Of a stretch of DNA of 64,000 nt, positions 7,273 to 53,429 are shown piece after piece. Each line of letters begins with the position of its first letter. Within the stretch, counting starts at the first letter, position 1. The translations under genes were made by a program, and so were the position numbers. Below the pieces are notes generated by a model. The model had not been told where the DNA came from and ran no database searches. It saw only the letters and a list, made by a program, of their open reading frames with translations. The DNA is from an uncultured bacterium (lineage in GTDB: Bacteria; Macinerneyibacteriota; Macinerneyibacteria; Macinerneyibacteriales; CAYRFE01), in assembly GCA_964423645.1 (NCBI GenBank), contig CAYRFE010000004.1:27227-91226 (forward strand). The letters run 5' to 3'.

Positions 7273-7653
7273 CTATTTCTTTCCGACACATGTTTCGCAA
7301 ATACCCGTGAAGTACAATACATGTCGTGTTATTTCAAAATGATAGTGTCGCTCGAGATCTTTTACCGTGTCATGAAGTGTACACGGCCCAAGAGGTATAA
7401 AGGTATGACAGTGACTGCAATGAAAAAAATGAGTGTGCTCGCCATTCAAGGGATAATAATATCGCAATGTGCCTTCTCGTTCACAGTGATAGGTAAATGC
7501 TTCAATAAGTCCGTTCTTTTCAAAATACGCGAGCGCACGATACACGGTGACGCGATCAGACCCGCTGCCGCCGTGTTCAAAAACATCATTCGCGGTCACA
7601 GGTTTATCTGCATCATTAATATAACGAAGTAATATCTTTCGAATACGCGTCAT
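7273..7653 (-). CDS. zur: Fur-family metalloregulator, probably Zur
   Basis: Fur-family size, with HCSHCH and C-x2-C metal site motifs. It is the last gene of the znuACB operon. Confidence 0.75.
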   Translation of the reverse strand: MTRIRKILLRYINDADKPVTANDVFEHGGSGSDRVTVYRALAYFEKNGLIEAFTYHCEREGTLRYYYPLNGEHTHFFHCSHCHTFIPLGPCTLHDTVKDLERHYHFEITRHVLYFTGICETCVGKK

Positions 7654-8450
7654 CGCAACACTCGCCCTGCAATAAAAGCGATCACAAATAAAATGAAATT
7701 GACTGCTACAATTGCCGCCCCGGTCGGGAGATTGAACAGTGCAGAAATTACAATGCCGGAAAACACCGCTACGACCGACACAAATACTGCCGTCATTGCC
7801 GCTTTTTTAAAACTATGTGCGATTTGAAGTGCCGTCACTGCAGGGAAAATAAGCAAACTGGAAATCAATAACGTCCCTACCACACGAATACCGACTACGA
7901 TTGTGCATGCAGCAAGTACTACCAACACTTTCTGCAACAAACCGACGCGTATTCCCGATACACGTGCGAAATCTTCATCGTAGGTAAGTGAAAACAGATC
8001 GTGATAATAATACCATAATACTGCCACTGTGAATATCGATATTCCCGCAGCCCATACCACTTCTGATGTTGTTACGGAGATAATACTCCCAAAAAGATAA
8101 CTGAAAAGATCAACGTTGAACCCGCCCGACAAACTCGCCGCCAGCACTCCGACCGCGATCGCAAGTGTCGACACCATCGCGATAGCCGTATCACCGTAGA
8201 CAACCTTTGCATCCGCCAAGCGATAGATCCACAATGATGCCGCTATCGTAAAAGGAATTGCAAAATATAACGGTGCAACACCCAAAACCATTGCGATACC
8301 GATTGACGCAAATGCCGAATGCGCGAGTCCGTCTCCAAGCATCGAAAAACGTCGCAAAACTAAAAATAGTCCGAGAATCGCGGTGCTTACACCGATAAAC
8401 ATTCCCGCGATCAATGCCCGTTGCATGAATCCATAGGTAAAAATATCCAT
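7650..8450 (-). CDS. znuB: Zinc/manganese ABC transporter permease
   Basis: Polytopic membrane protein of ABC-3 family type. Sits in operon with znuC and znuA. Confidence 0.85.
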   Translation of the reverse strand: MDIFTYGFMQRALIAGMFIGVSTAILGLFLVLRRFSMLGDGLAHSAFASIGIAMVLGVAPLYFAIPFTIAASLWIYRLADAKVVYGDTAIAMVSTLAIAVGVLAASLSGGFNVDLFSYLFGSIISVTTSEVVWAAGISIFTVAVLWYYYHDLFSLTYDEDFARVSGIRVGLLQKVLVVLAACTIVVGIRVVGTLLISSLLIFPAVTALQIAHSFKKAAMTAVFVSVVAVFSGIVISALFNLPTGAAIVAVNFILFVIAFIAGRVLR

Positions 8451-9172
8451 TACACACCTCTCTTACTATGATGCGAATGGTTAAAATAGTGTTCTTTTTG
8501 TTGTGAAAAATAATCCTCCATAGACCCGTAATAAAGTAACGTTCTGTCTAAATACAACACCGAGCGTGCATAATAACGAATAGCCGACACATCATGAGTG
8601 ACCATAATGACGGTAATATGGTGTTCACTGTTGAGAGCGGCTATTGTTTTATAAAAACACTCCCGTGTGTGCGGATCAAGTGCGGCTGTCGGTTCATCCA
8701 ACACCAAAAGAGACGGATTACTGACCAATGCTCGTGCAAGATGCACGCGCTGTTGCTGTCCACCCGACAACAATCCGACGCGTTTATGTGCAAGATCGTG
8801 AATCTCCAGAATATGCAGAATTTCTTCAACCTGCTCCTTATCCGAACTGTCGTAGACGCGACGTTTTTCAAGTCCTGACGCGACCACCTCCCGCACTGAT
8901 GCAGGAAATAACGGATCGACTGACGTTGATTTCTGCGGCAAATACCCGATACAATCAAAACATGTGCCATACTGCTCACTTTCGTTGAAAACGATCGTGC
9001 CTTCAAAAGGCATCAATAATCCGACGATAGTTTTGATAAGCGTGGTCTTTCCCGACCCGTTCGGGCCTGCAACCGCTAAAAAGTCGCCACGCGAAATGAC
9101 ACAATTAATATCATTCAATACCGCCTCAGCGCCGTAGCGGACAGATACATTTCGAACCGTAATATGCGACAT
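8450..9172 (-). CDS. znuC: Zinc ABC transporter ATP-binding protein
   Basis: Walker A GPNGSGKTT, ABC signature LSGGQQQRV, Walker B LLVLDEP. Confidence 0.9.
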   Translation of the reverse strand: MSHITVRNVSVRYGAEAVLNDINCVISRGDFLAVAGPNGSGKTTLIKTIVGLLMPFEGTIVFNESEQYGTCFDCIGYLPQKSTSVDPLFPASVREVVASGLEKRRVYDSSDKEQVEEILHILEIHDLAHKRVGLLSGGQQQRVHLARALVSNPSLLVLDEPTAALDPHTRECFYKTIAALNSEHHITVIMVTHDVSAIRYYARSVLYLDRTLLYYGSMEDYFSQQKEHYFNHSHHSKRGV

Positions 9173-9175
9173 ACA

Positions 9176-10120
9176 TCACCTGAGCGCTTTCAGAAGTTTG
9201 TCAAGATTGGCTTCCATTATCTCGGTGTAATGAACTCCTTTGAGAAATTCATCTTTACTCACATTGTGTACGCCGTGCAATAAAACAAGTGATGCGCCGG
9301 TCTCTTTTTTAATCACTTCAGCGATCCTCGGTTGTGTCAGTTCTTCATAGAAAACAGTTGTTTGTCCGGTTTTTTTCATTAAGGATATCATTTCTTTTAT
9401 AGCGGCCGGTGTCGGTTCTGCATTGGGAGAAAACCCTTTATACGGAGACACATGATCAAGTTTGTATCTCTGTGCAAAATAACCGAATGCAAAATGCCCC
9501 GCGTAAATAACTGTGCGATGACGAAGTGTTGCCAATTCCTTTTCGCACCGAGTATGTAGCTCCATAATATCTGCTTGCACTATCTCCGCATTACGAATAT
9601 ACGTCATCGCATTCTTCGGATCTTTTTGCACGTATGCATTGACAATAGTATCGACCATTTGTGCGGCAAATATCGGATCGAGCCATATATGAGGATCTTT
9701 CGTGTGACTTTTTTCTTCATCATGTTGATCATGCTCGTCAGCATCATCGTGGTGATGGTCGCCGTCACTATCCATCAGATCTATTCCCTTTGAAGTATCA
9801 ACGATGATCGCAGACGATTTCGGTAGAGAGGCACGCACTTTTTCAGCCCACGGTTCCATATATTTTCCGGTATAAATAAAAAGTGATGCATCGGCAATTG
9901 TCTTGATATCCATCGGTGTCGGCTCAAATGAATGTACCTCTACTCCGGGCGGGATTATCATCGTCACGTCTGCTACATCCCCGGCGATAGTCCGTGCAAA
10001 ATCATACAAGACATAGTTGGTAGTGACAATTTTCATGCGTCCTGTGTCTTCTTTTTTTCCTGCACACGCACTGAATAATACCAGAAGCACCGCAATAACA
10101 ATAACACGTATATAATTCAT
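9176..10120 (-). CDS. znuA: Zinc ABC transporter substrate-binding lipoprotein with His/Asp-rich loop
   Basis: Lipoprotein signal LLVLFSAC. His-rich loop DSDGDHHHDDADEHDQHDEEKSH, typical of ZnuA. TroA-like fold. Confidence 0.85.
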   Translation of the reverse strand: MNYIRVIVIAVLLVLFSACAGKKEDTGRMKIVTTNYVLYDFARTIAGDVADVTMIIPPGVEVHSFEPTPMDIKTIADASLFIYTGKYMEPWAEKVRASLPKSSAIIVDTSKGIDLMDSDGDHHHDDADEHDQHDEEKSHTKDPHIWLDPIFAAQMVDTIVNAYVQKDPKNAMTYIRNAEIVQADIMELHTRCEKELATLRHRTVIYAGHFAFGYFAQRYKLDHVSPYKGFSPNAEPTPAAIKEMISLMKKTGQTTVFYEELTQPRIAEVIKKETGASLVLLHGVHNVSKDEFLKGVHYTEIMEANLDKLLKALR

Positions 10121-10277: not shown

Positions 10278-10826
10278 ATGCATCAGAATCCTGAAAGACA
10301 ACACCGTATCATCCGACTCATTCGCCACTTTCCGGTGCGCTATTCGTTCCGCCCGTTGTTGCGAGGCACAGAGCTTGAACAGGCGATGAAAGACTACGAT
10401 ACACCTGAGCTTTTGGATGTTCCAACGGCAATTCCCACCTATTCGTGTATCGGAACATTATATTCGAGTGACCTCAACCGCGCACGTATCACCGCTGAAC
10501 TTCTTTTTAAACAAAAACCGATCACTGATCCGCGCCTTCGCGAATTTGTGTTTGAGCCGGTATTACCGCCATCATGGAAACTGCCGGGGTGGCTTTGGGG
10601 AGTACTCGGACGCTACTGTGCGTCAAAAAAGAAGAATGAATCGTTTCGTACACCGATCATAGAATTTCTTGAAGAACTGCTTGCGACAAACACTGACGCG
10701 ACGATCGTCTGCCACGGCTATGTGATGTATATACTGCAAAAAGAGCTGTTGCGCCGCGGATTTTCGGGGAAAAGATTCCTTACGCCGAAACATGCAAAGC
10801 CGTATATTTTTACCAGGAGAAATTAA
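10278..10826 (+). CDS. Histidine phosphatase family protein (phosphoglycerate mutase-like)
   Basis: LIRH near the N-terminus and IVCHGYVMY near the C-terminus fit the RHG...HG catalytic pattern of the histidine phosphatase superfamily. Its stop overlaps the ATG of the next gene. Confidence 0.45.
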   Translation: MHQNPERQHRIIRLIRHFPVRYSFRPLLRGTELEQAMKDYDTPELLDVPTAIPTYSCIGTLYSSDLNRARITAELLFKQKPITDPRLREFVFEPVLPPSWKLPGWLWGVLGRYCASKKKNESFRTPIIEFLEELLATNTDATIVCHGYVMYILQKELLRRGFSGKRFLTPKHAKPYIFTRRN

Positions 10827-11857
10827 TGAAATCACTTTTTTTCATGCTCAACACGACCGCGTGTAATAACAGCTGTGCTCATTGTTATGTACCGCAACAC
10901 CGAAACAAAAGGTTCAAAACAACACAAGAAATTATCGCTATCTTTGAGATACTATCACGCCTTCGTGAAAAACCGTTACATGCAGAAAATATCACATTGT
11001 ACTTCCATGATGAGCCGACGTTACATCCCGACATTTTACACATTCTCAACCTTGTACAACAGTATAATTTTTCCTATGTACGCGGACTCATGACCAACGG
11101 ATCGGGAATTGCGCTGCGCCCCAACGGGACAACTATTGCAAAAGAAATTTATACCCTTGGCACTACAATGGCATGTATGTCTTTTTTTGGCAATGAACAA
11201 GAACATGACATGTTCGCAGGCAGGAAGGGCGCATATAACAACCTAATAACAGCTATTCATATCTGCAAAAAAATCGGTTTCGCTATTCATATCAATCTTT
11301 TTATTACACCGCAAAACTTACTGTCATTATCAAAAACAGAGCACTTCTTACGAGGAATTAGTGATTCTTTCAATTTCTCCGTTTACGCGCACACTGATCG
11401 CACTGATAAAAACGCCTCAATTCTTCTACAATCACATCACAAAGAATATTTACATACACTTGATTACAATATTGAAAATCCAAGATTACAACTTAAAACA
11501 CAAAAAGAATGGTTTGATATGGTTGAATCAAATGAATGTATGATGCCCTATTTAGGCACTTCTGAAGAAGAACTCGCGTCCGAAGTCACCGATTTTATTG
11601 AGTTTGACAACAAATTATATGATAGTTCAAATATTTTCACATCAAGTTTTATTCATTCGAATCTTTATGAACCGGACTTAGCTCAAAAAATTACAAATAA
11701 TCATACATCCGAGGGAACTCGTACATATAATGAATTACTGAAAGAATTTCCCAAAAAAGGTGCTGATTTTATGAAGGCATATCTTGATATGCAAGACAAT
11801 TCGTTATGGACTTTTTGGAATTTGATTGATCGATACTTCTATTATAGAACTAAATAA
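10826..11857 (+). CDS. Radical SAM protein
   Basis: N-terminal C-x3-C-x2-C (CNNSCAHC), the radical SAM 4Fe-4S motif. Translationally coupled to the phosphatase upstream. Confidence 0.75.
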   Translation: MKSLFFMLNTTACNNSCAHCYVPQHRNKRFKTTQEIIAIFEILSRLREKPLHAENITLYFHDEPTLHPDILHILNLVQQYNFSYVRGLMTNGSGIALRPNGTTIAKEIYTLGTTMACMSFFGNEQEHDMFAGRKGAYNNLITAIHICKKIGFAIHINLFITPQNLLSLSKTEHFLRGISDSFNFSVYAHTDRTDKNASILLQSHHKEYLHTLDYNIENPRLQLKTQKEWFDMVESNECMMPYLGTSEEELASEVTDFIEFDNKLYDSSNIFTSSFIHSNLYEPDLAQKITNNHTSEGTRTYNELLKEFPKKGADFMKAYLDMQDNSLWTFWNLIDRYFYYRTK

Positions 11858-11864
11858 ATAGGCT

Positions 11865-12539
11865 TTAAGACAACTTGAATTTTGCTGCTATTTTATCAAA
11901 CAAATCCGGGTATAACACACGTATACAATCAGGGCAAATCCCGTGTGAGATATCCTCGCCGACTAATTGATACAATTCAGGTGATATATCAATCCACAGA
12001 TTTTTTTCATACTTTGCTTTTTTGCAATTTGAACACACTACAAGAAACGATCTTTTATCCGACGGATAATTTTTCACAGTTGCCTTTAAAAGTCCGATAA
12101 GACTATCAACACTGCCTGTAACTTCGCTTTCTCGTCCTAAATCAATCACAATTCCGCGAATTCGAGCAGGTTTATTGTTTGATAACTTTTCAATCACTGT
12201 TCCCCGATCCATATACCAGCGATACTCCCCCGTTTCCGTTTTGATCCGGTAATCCACCTGATACAGGTCCGTCTCACCTTTCAACACCACCATCATGGCA
12301 TTCATCGTGTAAGCGAAATCATCGGGATGAAGTAAGTCAGTGAATACTTCATATCCTTTATCCTTAAAATCAGCCGGATCATACCCAAGCATAGTAACTT
12401 TCAATTCATTAAAAACGACTTTATTTGTGACAACATCCCATTCCCACCATGCAAAAGGAGAGTTCTTTAGCAACGTAACGGAATCAAAATATGTGCTCAT
12501 AAAACCTCCTATAGTACTCTTTGAAACAACTCTCTGCAT
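11865..12539 (-). CDS. PAS domain protein with C-terminal 4-Cys (CxxC...HGICPDC) module
   Basis: PAS fold (FAWWEWDVVTNKVVF...HPDDF...YRIKTETGEYRWY). C-terminus is VCSNCKKAKYEKNLWIDISPELYQLVGEDISHGICPDCIRVLYPDL. This is homologous to the C-terminus of the hybrid kinase at 30471-33170. Confidence 0.7.
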   Translation of the reverse strand: MQRVVSKSTIGGFMSTYFDSVTLLKNSPFAWWEWDVVTNKVVFNELKVTMLGYDPADFKDKGYEVFTDLLHPDDFAYTMNAMMVVLKGETDLYQVDYRIKTETGEYRWYMDRGTVIEKLSNNKPARIRGIVIDLGRESEVTGSVDSLIGLLKATVKNYPSDKRSFLVVCSNCKKAKYEKNLWIDISPELYQLVGEDISHGICPDCIRVLYPDLFDKIAAKFKLS

Positions 12540-13460: not shown

Positions 13461-13502
13461 ACGATCCCTTTCATCCGCAGATTACGCTGATTTTCACAGA
13501 TT
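13401..13502. repeat. 102-bp direct repeat, copy 2
   Basis: Near-identical to 12581-12682. Covers the first 20 codons and 42 nt of 5'UTR of the methyltransferase. Confidence 0.85.
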
Positions 13503-13874
13503 TAAAACCAACCTTTTATATTCTAACGACACTCCCCCGAAATTAATAAGAAGCGCACGATTAAACCCGGACGCCTTTAGATAATTAATAACTTGCGCCT
13601 CTTCGTTACCGGAAAGCATTGCAATAGCTTTCAACTCGACTATTACAGAGGTAAAACAAATAAAATCCGCTTTATAATACGTTTTCATTGGTTTGCCACG
13701 GTAAGATAGTGATAGTTCTTTTTCTCGAACATAAGGAATACCTTGTATAATGAATTCTTCTTCCAATGCTTCCTGATACACAGCTTCAAGGAAACCATGT
13801 CCGAGTTCACGATGCACGCGCATCGCTGCACCTATAATAGCATACGTTTCTTTGTCGTTATAATCAGCGTTCAT
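13494..13874 (-). CDS. GxxExxY family protein (PD-(D/E)XK-like)
   Basis: YAIIGAAMRVHRELGHGFLEAVYQEALEEEF is the GxxExxY family signature. About 125 aa. Confidence 0.75.
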   Translation of the reverse strand: MNADYNDKETYAIIGAAMRVHRELGHGFLEAVYQEALEEEFIIQGIPYVREKELSLSYRGKPMKTYYKADFICFTSVIVELKAIAMLSGNEEAQVINYLKASGFNRALLINFGGVSLEYKRLVLNL

Positions 13875-26598: not shown

Positions 26599-27552
26599 TC
26601 AATCACTTTTAATGTTTTTTTCGGAAAGACCGTATCGCTCATTCGGCTCAACATTACCCTTCGGTTCAATATGCACGATCACGTCGTACACATCTGGTAA
26701 ACAATTTTTGATCGCGTGTTCAACACTTTTTGCAATTTCGTGTGCATGGATAACCGTCATCATTCCATCAACTTCAATATCAATATCAACCACCAAAGAA
26801 TTAGCCATTTTACGAACACGAGCACGATGCGGGTTTGACGCTCCCGGAACATCCGAAACGGCATCAAAAATGGTATCATATACCGCTGTATCATCAAGTC
26901 CGTCCATAAGCTCGTTCTTTGTCTCAAGAAAAATTCCGACCGCACTTTTCATGATCCATAATCCCAAAACAATCGCAACAGTCAAATCAATATACGGTGT
27001 TCCTGTCACTCGGGTCATCACGACACCAACGAGAACGCTCGATGAGATAAGAATATCGTTTCGCATGTTTTTCGCATTTGCGTTTAACATAGAACTGCTG
27101 TGTCGTTTGCCGATTCGAAACTGGTACCATGCCAGTAATAATTTTCCTATTATAGATGCGAGAGTGACAAATAATGCCAGTGTCGTAGGAATTACAAGCG
27201 GTTCTTTCGAGGTAATTTTGTGTACGGCAGATAAAATTAATTGCACCCCGGCAAAAAAAATGATAAAGGACAATACTTTTGTAGCGATCGTCTCGGCCCT
27301 TCCGTGTCCGTAGGGATGATTTTTGTCAGGGGGTTGCGCAATGATTTTTGCTGCCACTAAAGTGACGACCGATACCAAAACATCCGTGGTCGAATCTATA
27401 CCGTCACCGATAACGGCAAAACTTCCCGAAATAAAACCGGCAACAATCTTTGTGCATGCAAGAAACGCATTGCCTACAATACTGACCCAAGATGCGGTAA
27501 TAATTGCATGTGTGCGCGTATCAACAGGTGTGGTATTCATTGATATCACCAA
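26599..27552 (-). CDS. Cation diffusion facilitator family transporter
   Basis: TM domain with IAGFISGSFAVIGDGIDSTTD, HGHGRAET, and a C-terminal cytoplasmic domain (HIEPKG). Confidence 0.85.
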   Translation of the reverse strand: MVISMNTTPVDTRTHAIITASWVSIVGNAFLACTKIVAGFISGSFAVIGDGIDSTTDVLVSVVTLVAAKIIAQPPDKNHPYGHGRAETIATKVLSFIIFFAGVQLILSAVHKITSKEPLVIPTTLALFVTLASIIGKLLLAWYQFRIGKRHSSSMLNANAKNMRNDILISSSVLVGVVMTRVTGTPYIDLTVAIVLGLWIMKSAVGIFLETKNELMDGLDDTAVYDTIFDAVSDVPGASNPHRARVRKMANSLVVDIDIEVDGMMTVIHAHEIAKSVEHAIKNCLPDVYDVIVHIEPKGNVEPNERYGLSEKNIKSD

Positions 27553-30470: not shown

Positions 30471-33170
30471 TCATCCGTTATTCAGCAGATCATCATACAT
30501 CTTTTTACGGCAATCCGGACATATACTATGACTGAATTGTGCATCAGTATGTGTCTCTATATACCCCTCAACGCTTTTCCAGCCGTCTTTATCATGCACT
30601 TTTTTACAACCTGCACAAATATGTATGAACCCGCTAAGCGCTTTTGTGAGTGACGTGGTCAATTGTTCACTCATTGCGGCTCGTTCACGCTCAGCATCTT
30701 CCCGCAATGCAATCTCGTGCTGAATTTGACAATTGAGCGCGTGTAAAACGGCAAGCGTGCGCACACGTGCCAACAATTCATCCTTATCGAACGGTTTTAC
30801 CAGATAATCGTTTGCACCCGCTTTTAAACCGTTCACAATATCCTGCGGTTGATTTTTTGCAGTCAACATCAGAATGGGCATATCCATAAGAGAAAATTTT
30901 TCACGGATCTTGATCGCTACCTCATACCCCGACATTTTGGGCATCATTACGTCTAATAGGACAATATCAGGCACTGTCTCTTCTATTATTTTAAGGGCAT
31001 CAGGCCCATTCTCGGCTTTCAACACCGTATACCGAGCAAATACAAGATGATTGAGCAATACTTGCAAATTTACCGGATCATCATCAACAATGAGAACCGT
31101 TGATTGGGTCAGATCGCCTTGCGAATACTCAATGACACTATTTGTTGTGACGACATGAGGTTTGATCGCATGCTTCACGATCGGAATAGCATCTCCTGTA
31201 ATTTGCACAATGGACTTTTCATTGTATAACGGTAATGAGAACGAAAATGTTGAACCTTTCCCAACCTCAGACTCGACACGAATCGTACCGCGATGAAGCT
31301 CAATCAGTTTTTTAGTGATTGCCAACCCGATACCGGAACCGCCTGATCCCAATGTCTGAGCATTGGAAGCTTGCTCAAACGGCATGAATATACGCTCAAA
31401 TTGTTCGTGCGGGATACCAATCCCGGTATCGGTAATATGCACAACGCACATCCCCTCTTCAACTTCTGCGGTAACAACGACTCGCCCCTCTTCAGTATAT
31501 TTGATCGCATTTCCTATCAAATTGAGTAATATTTGTTGCAATCTGTCTTCATCCGCATAAACAAGGGGAAGGGCGCGTGAAATATCATTTACTAATGTAA
31601 TATTTTTCCCGGATTTCAAATGACCCGATATCTGAATAACCATGTCAACGATATCGTATACGATCAACGGTTTCTGATTGAGACTGATGTTTCTGTTCTT
31701 TAAATGCGAAAAATCTAAAATATCATTGATGAGATTCGTGAGTCTTTTTCCGCTGCCGATGATCATCATGAGATTATGTTTGGCTTGTTCCGTTAATACG
31801 CCTGCAACACCGTCATAAAGTGATTGTGCGATACCGATGATCCCGTTGAGCGGTGTACGCAACTCATGAGACGTATTTGCCATAAATTCATCTTTTAAAT
31901 GATCGAGAGCAACCAATTTTTCCGAGAACAATTCTACTTGGACAAATGCATTTGAGATACGTAACGACATTACATATGACTGGAACATAATGAATAAGAA
32001 AAACCCTACGGGAATAAGATATGCGGTCATAATGACCTGATGTGAATACAGGATATCATTTACTATCGTTGCTGCTAAAAATAAAAAACCCAAGAGCATG
32101 ACCTTTGCACTTTCCTGGCGATGTATGCTGGCTCGTATTAGAATGATAATTATATATATTGCAACGAGTACATCAAGCACTTCATACAACGGTAAAGTAT
32201 AAATATAAACTTTCGCGGGGAAAAACATTACAACTGAGACAAACAGAACTCCCATGATGACAAAGCCTTTGGTGATCGCAGGAAAATCTTCTTTAGGGAA
32301 CAATGAACATAAAAACAATAAAAACACCGGCAATACCATGTAATGGGGAATATAATCAAGTTTGACTAAAAATTCCCATCCGGCGTTGGGATAAATTATA
32401 TTAAGGAATCGCTCTCCATTTACTAATGAAAATAACGCAAATAAGAAACAGGTCAAACTAAAATACAATGTTGAAATATCTTTTTTTCGAAAAATATACA
32501 AACTGAAGTGATAAAAACCCATGAGAAGAAGTCCGCCGATTATGAACAGGTCAAACGCCAATCGTTTTGCAGTCGCCGTAAGCATCATCTGTTCGTTTCC
32601 TATTTCCATGATTCCTTCAATACCGCCGCGTACATGGGAAAAATTTGAAATTTGTAAGATAATATCAAATTCTTGTGCATTGGAAGGAAGAGCGGACATT
32701 TTATTCAACAAAAGGGGTTTCGCGGTACGGGGTGAGGCGGATACCACACCGTTCGTAATTATTGCTTCGCCATTGACCCATAAACGATACGAGGTTAAAG
32801 CGAACGGCATAAATACCATCAACCGTTCGGACGGCTTTTTTAAACGTACCCGCAAACGCATTGTCGCATATCCGTCGCCGGGTAATCGTTTATCACCAAT
32901 TTTTACGGCATTCCATGTCCCCGGCAACGTGATATATCCTGTTTGATTGTGCGTCGAGTTTGAAAAATCCTTCGGCTCCAACAGTTGATTCCAGTAGAAT
33001 TCCCATTCCCCGTTCAACGGAGCAATACCGTCGGTTATAAAATCCCATTGTGAAAGGTCTAACTCACCGGATTTCGATTGTATATAATTTTCTTTCACGG
33101 AACCGATTCTACATGACGTCATCAATACAATAACAATTCCGACGATTCCAATGAAAAATAACCGACGCAT
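30471..33170 (-). CDS. Hybrid sensor histidine kinase/response regulator with 7TMR-DISM sensor and C-terminal 4-Cys module
   Basis: Signal plus extracellular domain, then a 7-TM block (7TMR-DISM type). H-box HELRTPLNGIIG, HATPase G-boxes (GIGIP..GGSGIGL), REC domain (IVDDDPVN...DVMMPKMSG...KPF). C-terminus ICAGCKKVHDKDGWKSVEGYIETHTDAQFSHSICPDCRKKMYDDL. Confidence 0.85.
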   Translation of the reverse strand: MRRLFFIGIVGIVIVLMTSCRIGSVKENYIQSKSGELDLSQWDFITDGIAPLNGEWEFYWNQLLEPKDFSNSTHNQTGYITLPGTWNAVKIGDKRLPGDGYATMRLRVRLKKPSERLMVFMPFALTSYRLWVNGEAIITNGVVSASPRTAKPLLLNKMSALPSNAQEFDIILQISNFSHVRGGIEGIMEIGNEQMMLTATAKRLAFDLFIIGGLLLMGFYHFSLYIFRKKDISTLYFSLTCFLFALFSLVNGERFLNIIYPNAGWEFLVKLDYIPHYMVLPVFLLFLCSLFPKEDFPAITKGFVIMGVLFVSVVMFFPAKVYIYTLPLYEVLDVLVAIYIIIILIRASIHRQESAKVMLLGFLFLAATIVNDILYSHQVIMTAYLIPVGFFLFIMFQSYVMSLRISNAFVQVELFSEKLVALDHLKDEFMANTSHELRTPLNGIIGIAQSLYDGVAGVLTEQAKHNLMMIIGSGKRLTNLINDILDFSHLKNRNISLNQKPLIVYDIVDMVIQISGHLKSGKNITLVNDISRALPLVYADEDRLQQILLNLIGNAIKYTEEGRVVVTAEVEEGMCVVHITDTGIGIPHEQFERIFMPFEQASNAQTLGSGGSGIGLAITKKLIELHRGTIRVESEVGKGSTFSFSLPLYNEKSIVQITGDAIPIVKHAIKPHVVTTNSVIEYSQGDLTQSTVLIVDDDPVNLQVLLNHLVFARYTVLKAENGPDALKIIEETVPDIVLLDVMMPKMSGYEVAIKIREKFSLMDMPILMLTAKNQPQDIVNGLKAGANDYLVKPFDKDELLARVRTLAVLHALNCQIQHEIALREDAERERAAMSEQLTTSLTKALSGFIHICAGCKKVHDKDGWKSVEGYIETHTDAQFSHSICPDCRKKMYDDLLNNG

Positions 33171-33187: not shown

Positions 33188-33421
33188 TTATATACCTGGA
33201 AATGAATCAACATACTGAATTGTAAAATCAGGGAATGAATCGACGATTTGTATTTTATAATCCGGAAAAGAGGTCACTTCTTCCCACTTTCCTATCGAAT
33301 CCGGGAATGAACTCACCATCTGAACGCGTAGGTCGGGAAAAGAGGTCACGACCTGAACTTTGAAATCGGGAAAAGAATCAACAAACTGAATTTTCCCGTA
33401 GATACGTGATACATCTGCCAT
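33188..33421 (-). CDS. Mini-protein of six or seven tandem 11-residue repeats (x-[IV]-Q-x-V-[DST]-SFPD-x)
   Basis: MADVSRIYGKIQFVDSFPDFKVQVVTSFPDLRVQMVSSFPDSIGKWEEVTSFPDYKIQIVDSFPDFTIQYVDSFPGI. Its stop is 18 nt upstream of the kinase ATG. Confidence 0.5.
   Translation of the reverse strand: MADVSRIYGKIQFVDSFPDFKVQVVTSFPDLRVQMVSSFPDSIGKWEEVTSFPDYKIQIVDSFPDFTIQYVDSFPGI
33190..33400. repeat. In-frame 33-nt tandem repeat array (coding)
   Basis: Units such as cgggaaaagaggtcacgacctgaactttgaaat recur six or seven times and underlie the 11-aa protein repeats. Confidence 0.7.
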
Positions 33422-33436
33422 AGTTTTCCCCCCTTT

Positions 33437-33790
33437 CTATTCAATCGTTACTGTTACGGTACAATCGCTGAACGGGTCGCCTCGAAAATATTGCAGTATT
33501 TTTATTGTTGTGCTCCCCGCTGCACATGCTTCGAAACGAAATAAGCCTTGCTCTTCATCGGCACCGCACATCCCCGCCTCGATCGCTTCGGGATGCATAT
33601 AATGAGAGTCATTATCTTTTAAACACATTATTGCGGGATCCGCTATTTCATATCCAATGGTAAACCCAACGGATGCATGGGTTGAATAACTGCAGATAAG
33701 AAGATCGGAAATGTGCAACAAAACACTTCGATCGGTGTGCCCTGGGGCGCTGATACACCCTGAAATATCCACAAAAGAAACCTTTTTCAC
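33437..33790 (-). CDS. Chagasin-like (I42 family) putative cysteine-peptidase inhibitor
   Basis: GMCGADEEQGLFRFEACAAGSTTIKILQYFRGDP aligns to the chagasin core GAGGTEHFHVTVKAAGTHAVNLTYMRPW. About 117 aa. Recall-based. Confidence 0.4.
   Translation of the reverse strand: MKKVSFVDISGCISAPGHTDRSVLLHISDLLICSYSTHASVGFTIGYEIADPAIMCLKDNDSHYMHPEAIEAGMCGADEEQGLFRFEACAAGSTTIKILQYFRGDPFSDCTVTVTIE

Positions 33791-53356: not shown

Positions 53357-53429
<73 letters not shown>

Follow-up and report, generated by a model that had tools for sequence, protein, structure and literature searches.

A widespread C-terminal Cys4 module of bacterial sensors and response regulators most resembles the Fur dimerisation domain

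Two otherwise unrelated signalling proteins encoded in the window (the whole 64 kb stretch of DNA analysed here) end in the same small module, and profile searches place this module in what is, judged by its sequence, a very large and uncurated bacterial domain family of ~50 residues. The module most resembles the dimerisation domain of the Fur/PerR/Zur proteins and lies at the C-terminal end of sensors and regulators, behind a predicted coiled coil. We hold, with slightly less than even confidence, that a Zn(Cys)4-clamped dimeric module ending a registered coiled coil would act as a non-enzymatic output, probably by binding a shared cellular partner.

The first of the two proteins is a 224-aa PAS protein (11865..12539, minus strand), whose gene is found on five metagenome contigs and whose sole significant Pfam family is PAS_3 (E 3e-18; PF08447, 66.3 bits at residues 48-131, 12147..12398, minus strand). 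Its module spans residues 165-213 (FLVVCSNCKK...SHGICPDCIRVLYPDL; 11901..12047, minus strand) and was located by motif scan, by hidden Markov model (HMM) and in an AlphaFold2 (AF2) model. The second is a 7TMR-DISM hybrid histidine kinase of 899 aa (30471..33170), identified from its open reading frame and Pfam matches. All of its features lie on the minus strand: a 7TMR-DISM_7TM membrane sensor region at residues 205-402 (31965..32558; PF07695, E 3.4e-28), a HisKA phospho-acceptor domain at 426-491 (31698..31895; PF00512, E 3e-17), a HATPase_c catalytic domain at 540-649 (31224..31553; PF02518, E 2.4e-31) and a receiver (REC) domain at 692-804 (30759..31097; PF00072, E 2.6e-30). C-terminal to REC, a linker at residues 824-846 (30633..30701), modelled by AF2 as a helix (residues 2-24 of a 77-aa model, pLDDT 82-96 there), leads into the module at residues 848-895 (FIHICAGCKK...SHSICPDCRKKMYDDL; 30486..30629), which was again found by motif scan, HMM and AF2.

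The PAS protein has the C-terminal tail ...VCSNCKKAKYEKNLWIDISPELYQLVGEDISHGICPDCIRVLYPDL... and the hybrid kinase ...ICAGCKKVHDKDGWKSVEGYIETHTDAQFSHSICPDCRKKMYDDL..., with the common pattern C-x2-C-K-K...W...S-H-x-I-C-P-D-C...Y. Compared by BLASTP, the tails are 33% identical across 52 residues (E 1e-11), whereas no similarity was found between the remaining 163 residues of the PAS protein and 848 residues of the hybrid kinase (best E 0.23), which bears out the original prediction of a shared C-terminal four-Cys module on two unrelated signalling proteins. A profile check gave the same answer: an HMM built from 58 family members, with the window sequences left out, scored 69.5 bits (E 7e-21) on the hybrid-kinase tail and 43.8 bits (E 8e-13) on the PAS-protein tail. 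A six-frame motif scan of the window found exactly these two copies of the module, and in the six-frame translation the same HMM returned nothing at E<=10 beyond the two tails. The hybrid-kinase tail is present and almost unchanged in the four orthologues of that protein, at 65-100% identity, and is under clear purifying selection. Since CxxC motifs are short and frequent, and the two tails have only ~17 identical residues, one might think of a chance or low-complexity likeness between two Cys-rich ends. The pairwise and HMM E-values, the 18,796 family members found at E<=1e-10 and a tail that hardly changes between kinases of 65% overall identity leave that explanation with a probability close to nil; the shared tail is real and far beyond chance.

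To estimate the size of the family, 1.84 billion representative proteins (representatives being defined at 50% identity) were searched with a profile drawn from five tails. The search returned 24,179 representatives at E<=1e-3, those at E<=1e-10 being the 18,796 cited above, so the similarity reaches well past the two proteins in which it was first noticed. A strict back-translated pattern confirmed at least 584 module loci in GTDB species genomes, from Thermodesulfobacteriota, Acidobacteriota, Nitrospirota, Chloroflexota, Planctomycetota (Scalindua), Bacteroidota, Ignavibacteriota, Spirochaetota, Myxococcota, Gemmatimonadota, Verrucomicrobiota, Latescibacterota and Calditrichota, and between phyla the module is 50-60% identical across ~50 residues. 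Module genes also occur in tandem (L070:242-6690, L029:426-6192, L080:497-6216, L041:3931-6198 and L073:3214-8602), with three consecutive copies in one Ignavibacteriota metagenome-assembled genome (MAG) and, in Bacteroidota MAGs, paired paralogues of ~880-920 aa, an arrangement that indicates local paralogue expansion.

The first reading of the DNA could attach no family name to the module, and the databases do not supply one: Pfam, NCBIfam and PDB sequence searches gave no well-characterised family. In scans of the window tails, canonical members and the consensus, no Pfam or NCBIfam model reached threshold, and the sub-threshold matches (zf-C4pol, DUF3039, DZR_2 and anti-sigma-F Fin) had E-values of 0.01-0.6. 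Besides sensor domains, no Pfam family was common to the full-length members of either of two samples (141 and 77 proteins), and fragments that cover hardly anything beyond the tail have no precomputed Pfam domain. Members are named at source ‘hypothetical protein’, ‘PAS S-box’, ‘response regulator, partial’ or ‘sensor with HAMP domain protein, partial’. Full-text literature searches, motif strings included, found no description of the module; most subscription journals lay outside their scope, and an earlier account is possible.

Over 235 distinct copies, the positions conserved in at least 90% read L-x-G-x2-P-I-C-x2-C-K-x2-R-x-D-x-G-x-W-x3-E-x-Y-x8-F-S-H-x2-C-P-x-C, with the residues C, C, W, H, C and C invariant in 60-sequence alignments. 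A median of 17 residues separates the last Cys from the C terminus, and in all 85 copies examined at genome loci the module ends 8-39 residues from the C terminus. Measured against this consensus, both window copies are divergent family members. All six of the invariant residues are present in both, as the original prediction of a conserved spacing of four Cys plus a His would have it; the spacing itself is only nearly the same, since the span from Cys1 to Cys4 is 37 residues in the PAS protein, as in 158 of 161 family copies, and 36 in the hybrid kinase, whose module has a one-residue deletion before the Trp. The near-invariant Pro that precedes Cys1 is missing from both: the hybrid kinase reads L-S-G-F-I-H-I-C, with His in place of Pro, and the PAS protein K-R-S-F-L-V-V-C. 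The PAS-protein module further carries the substitutions R8K, G12N and F29I at conserved positions.

AF2 models of the window tails, computed with a 60-sequence alignment as input, predict a fold with confidence. For the hybrid-kinase tail with its linker (pLDDT 89.3), a long helix leads into a Cys knuckle, after which come a beta-hairpin and a short helix, and the second Cys pair (C-P-x-C) opens the last helix. The PAS-protein tail modelled alone (pLDDT 87.1, pTM 0.70) has the elements E5-8, E14-16, E20-22, H26-35, E36-39, H42-48 and H50-60. Treble-clef and zinc-ribbon fingers (LIM, RING, PHD, DZR and similar) are among the nearest known folds. A treble clef has an N-terminal knuckle, a beta-hairpin and its last two ligands in the first turn of a helix, an order that the predicted knuckle, hairpin and second Cys pair may follow; because the second pair is predicted at the helix N-terminus, the module looks more like a treble clef than like the classical zinc ribbon with its two hairpins. 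The small zinc ribbon that the first reading named as one option thus comes with this caveat, while the four-Cys (+His) module itself is borne out. Among classical zinc ribbons, PF13240, PF13248 and DZR (PF12773) gave no match at gathering score, and DZR_2 reached 13.8-15.3 bits against a cut-off of 27. Fold searches with the AlphaFold module models returned no significant neighbour. Going by the invariant cysteines, their fixed span and the predicted fold, the module would bind zinc through its Cys4 site.

The closest relative that we found is the dimerisation domain of Fur, PerR and Zur, a resemblance that had not been suggested beforehand and that could reflect distant kinship or structural convergence. 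Using hhalign, a module profile built without the window sequences was aligned with the C-terminal domains of 10 real Fur-family proteins from seven phyla, giving Prob 94.3% and P 9.5e-8 over 45 columns that span both Cys pairs. When all non-Cys Fur columns were shuffled, the score fell from 36.9 to 13.6 +/- 3.7 (maximum 29.4), and when the inter-Cys columns alone were shuffled it fell to 21.2 +/- 3.1 (maximum 31.4); in neither control did any of the 60 shuffles reach the real score. Since none of these 120 Cys-preserving shuffles matched it, the likeness is more than two CxxC motifs at a similar distance. A PDB sequence-profile search with the module returned nothing significant, with PerR/Fur chains at the top (E 0.15-0.67); as the HMM-level search gives PerR only E 0.15, the Fur link comes from one profile-profile method and its controls.

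Both the module and the Fur (PF01475) C-terminal domain comprise ~50 residues with a CxxC...CxxC arrangement in which the first Cys of each pair follows a hydrophobic residue; they share the contexts (I/V)-C-x-x-C-(G/K)-K-(I/V)-x-D and G-(I/V)-C-x-x-C, and the same order of elements (strand, knuckle, strand, helix, strand, second pair). In PerR of GAS, ~52 residues (98-149) form the dimerisation domain, in which Cys104, Cys107, Cys144 and Cys147 hold zinc as a zinc finger that is apart from the regulatory site (PMC3931707). The module probably shares this fold and zinc clamp, and would dimerise. It is nevertheless not a member of the Fur family. Its proteins lack the N-terminal winged-helix DNA-binding domain of Fur, the two window proteins having PAS_3 or 7TMR-DISM/HisKA/HATPase_c/REC upstream instead, and no FUR Pfam match was found in the window proteins or among the 141 and 77 sampled family members. 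Fur has a His-rich regulatory site, H-x-H-H-x-x-C; before Cys1 the module consensus reads L-S-G-L-L-P-I-C where Fur sequences read H-H-H. The Cys span also differs, at 37 residues in the module and 41-44 in the Fur family.

Upstream, a predicted coiled-coil linker of heptad-quantised length joins the module to its sensor or REC domain. From the end of REC to Cys1 we counted 16 residues (twice), 23 (three times), 30 (five times), 31 (twice), 37 (three times) and 44, that is, steps of seven; between the PAS ‘DIT’ motif and Cys1, 55 of 58 cases have 35 residues and one has 28. The strongly hydrophobic linker positions are -21/-20, -17, -13, -10, -7 and -4/-3, with a dominant period of 3.4-3.5 residues. 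The window copies depart from these rules. The REC-to-Cys1 distance in the hybrid kinase is 42, outside the 16+7n series, with a linker that AF2 predicts as helical, while the PAS-protein linker contains Gly and Pro (...NYPSDKRS...) and lacks the canonical DIT motif. In known sensor kinases and cyclases, register-quantised coiled coils pass signals to dimeric outputs. The module linker is like the signalling helix of these systems (PAS-HisKA, HAMP-GGDEF, cyclases) in being hydrophobic at a/d positions and heptad-quantised, counted from the DIT motif or the REC end; those systems end in a kinase DHp bundle or a cyclase, whereas here the helix would end in a 50-residue Cys4 module.

Partner domains were counted in the best-scoring 150 representatives and at 80 loci, a sample that favours canonical members. 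PAS families lie upstream of the module in 42-57 of 141 and 19-31 of 77 proteins (two independent samples), and REC in 14 and 15 of them, respectively; further upstream partners are GAF, HAMP, MASE6/MASE3, Cache, CHASE, PocR, Reg_prop/Y_Y_Y, SBP_bac_3 and TPR. The module is thus portable across scaffolds, as had been proposed from its two copies in the window, and the suggested look at domain partners found, in these samples, sensor or receiver domains upstream. Two stand-alone short versions (P0001 and P0003) have an uninformative context, and some such versions are probably truncated gene calls. None of 232 module members has a histidine-kinase core, and 26 have REC. A histidine kinase is encoded within two genes of REC-module proteins in 8 of 11 cases, compared with 11 of 64 for members without REC, so that REC-module proteins resemble ordinary response regulators.

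Against this background the hybrid kinase of the window is unusual in joining histidine kinase, REC and module in a single chain. Among the best 120 homologues of this kinase the module occurs only in its four close orthologues. In the other 116 listed homologues the common core of 7TMR-DISM, HK and REC is joined by SpoIIE, GGDEF, nucleotide cyclase, His_kinase, extra HATPase, Hpt or PAS domains (domain order being deduced from Pfam lists). The module thus appears to occupy an effector slot. From position alone, the module would be the C-terminal output end of sensors and regulators.

Position also bears on a different reading, in which the Cys4(+His) site, holding Zn, Fe or Fe-S, is an input that senses redox state or metal in the manner of RsrA, Hsp33 or rubredoxin-type domains. 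Such a role would suit the four invariant Cys with an invariant His, the C-P-x-C at a helix N-terminus and the abundance of the module in anaerobes, Thermodesulfobacteriota among them; the window also has genes for zinc uptake and efflux close by, possibly by coincidence. The spacing, too, equals the C-x2-C-x29-C-P-x-C of rubredoxin. A direct comparison, however, aligned rubredoxin (PF00301) over 7 columns at Prob 2%, and no rubredoxin match came from Pfam, even at E<=10, or from PDB. The ZAS anti-sigma motif, H-x3-C-x2-C, likewise does not fit, as the module has H-x2-C-x2-C, a predicted beta-hairpin fold and no zf-HC2 match at E<=10. The module always follows receivers (REC, module, C terminus), the Cys4 zinc finger in the dimerisation domain of Fur/PerR stands apart from the regulatory site, and with a sensing role there would be no output in thousands of PAS-only and REC-only proteins. 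We consider a redox or metal sensor improbable.

The kinship with Fur raises another possibility, that the module is a passive dimerisation clamp which locks the end of the coiled coil while signalling proceeds through PAS or REC, for example by titration or heterodimerising. Its closest relative is after all a dimerisation domain, and Fur-type dimerisation domains are not themselves effectors, which counts against an output. Neighbourhood clustering across the 80 module loci found no recurrent non-signalling neighbour gene, and hence no partner gene, as a clamp would lead one to expect. Some proteins (P0013, P0004, P0005 and P0008) have two modules per chain: in P0013 the layout is REC, coiled coil, module, a 23-residue spacer and a second module, as if the two paired with each other, and in P0004 and P0005 a unit of membrane segment plus module occurs twice. 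Tandem modules in one chain fit a self-pairing module. Dimerisation would, however, already be supplied by the coiled coil, and the homologues of the window kinase bear enzymatic effector domains in place of the module. A clamp also does not account for the conservation of K, R, D, G, W, E, Y, F, S, H and P, each at 90% or more in the 235 copies; such non-ligand positions are much more conserved than in the ten aligned Fur-family domains. We regard a purely passive clamp as unlikely, if somewhat less so than a sensor.

Most response-regulator outputs bind DNA, and the module might be a dimeric zinc finger that binds DNA or RNA, comparable to ANTAR, which would make its proteins regulators of transcription or of RNA. 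In the module, basic pairs follow each Cys pair (C-K-K-I-R and C-x-K-K), and in the AF2 model the second Cys pair opens a helix, as in treble-clef DNA binders. There is also a precedent in HalOD2, an archaeal response-regulator output confined to a few halobacteria, in which REC and a helical segment are followed by a C-terminal two-CXXC domain predicted to bind zinc and DNA or RNA (Galperin et al. 2018, PMC5847659). The order of REC, helix and C-terminal two-CXXC domain is that of the module, but the two are set apart by their descriptions: the CXXC motifs of HalOD2 are 20-25 residues apart, and HHpred assigned it to PF13240 zinc_ribbon_2 at 96% (PMC5847659), a family to which the module has no match at E<=10. 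The net charge of the module is acidic (mean -1.9, range -6 to +3), the would-be recognition residues are near-identical in paralogues and across phyla, unlike those of specific DNA-binder families, no recurrent target gene adjoins the 80 loci, and no Pfam DNA-binding family was matched in the 141 and 77 members. Nucleic-acid binding accordingly seems to us quite unlikely, its standing falling between those of the clamp and the sensor.

We therefore return to a non-enzymatic, partner-binding output as the reading we prefer. In this model a Fur-type Zn(Cys)4 domain would have been recruited as the output end of one-component sensors and response regulators, with a parallel coiled-coil ‘signalling helix’ in fixed heptad register connecting PAS, GAF, HAMP or REC to the module. 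An upstream signal, whether a ligand or phosphorylation, would shift or rotate the linker helix, and this movement would alter the packing of the two modules in the homodimer and the surface that they expose. The module is too small for an enzyme and has no enzyme features, which argues against catalysis. Its near-identical surface in paralogues and across phyla, together with the lack of a linked partner gene at 80 loci, makes one shared, conserved target most likely, and its acidic net charge makes a protein a likelier target than a nucleic acid.

A bolder version of this reading, which we find possible but doubtful, is that the module marks a major new output class, in which many sensors and regulators, often several per genome, would converge through a near-identical Zn-clamped tail on one hub. 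That hub might be, for instance, the machinery of transcription or of translation, or some other housekeeping complex, and would be reached by direct contact between proteins; in its logic, such many-to-one wiring would be like that of chemoreceptor arrays or c-di-GMP networks.

Thousands of ‘PAS-only’ sensors and ‘output-less’ response regulators, notably in sulfate reducers, Acidobacteria, Nitrospirota, Bacteroidota and spirochaetes, now appear in annotation as hypothetical or ‘sensory box’ proteins whose mode of action is not known, and the module is the one feature common to them. It bears on an old puzzle, that of sensors without a recognisable output, and its linker rule is unusually clean. 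With it one gains a signature to search for, a structural hypothesis in which a Fur-type Zn(Cys)4 dimer ends a registered coiled coil, and an experimental handle on a common partner. Should there be one conserved partner, much bacterial signalling wiring that is now unexplained would become interpretable; and if the proposed relationship is true, the Fur dimerisation domain has been reused outside metalloregulators.

The surroundings of the two genes offer several further observations. About 1.7 kb from the PAS-protein gene lies a ZnuABC-type zinc uptake operon (ZnuA, 9176-10120; ABC ATPase, 8450-9172; presumed permease, 7650-8450), and a CDF zinc efflux transporter (Cation_efflux and ZT_dimer) is encoded at 26599-27552; the presence of zinc homeostasis genes near a putative zinc-module protein may be a coincidence. 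On the strand opposite the 7650-8450 open reading frame, a loose Cys/His-rich match, CYNCRPGREIEQCRNYNAGKHRYDRHKYCRHC, occurs at 7704-7799 (plus strand); the family HMM rules it out as a member, and it probably reflects a spurious frame. A His_Phos_1 phosphatase-like gene (10278-10826, plus strand) abuts a radical SAM gene of 343 aa (10826-11857, plus strand), and this pair converges on the PAS-protein gene with 7 bp between the gene ends, an arrangement found on the two contigs shown of the five. Beyond a methyltransferase gene that adjoins the PAS-protein gene, and before a sugar epimerase/dehydratase cluster, lies a PDDEXK_3-family (GxxExxY) gene at 13494-13874 (minus strand) that is unrelated to the module. 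At gathering threshold, Rfam matches the window at a single place, a tRNA gene at 53357-53429 (minus strand). Directly upstream of the hybrid kinase and on the same strand are two small open reading frames of 77 and 117 aa (33188-33790, minus strand) with no Pfam match; they are present on all three kinase-bearing contigs, and co-transcription with the kinase is possible.
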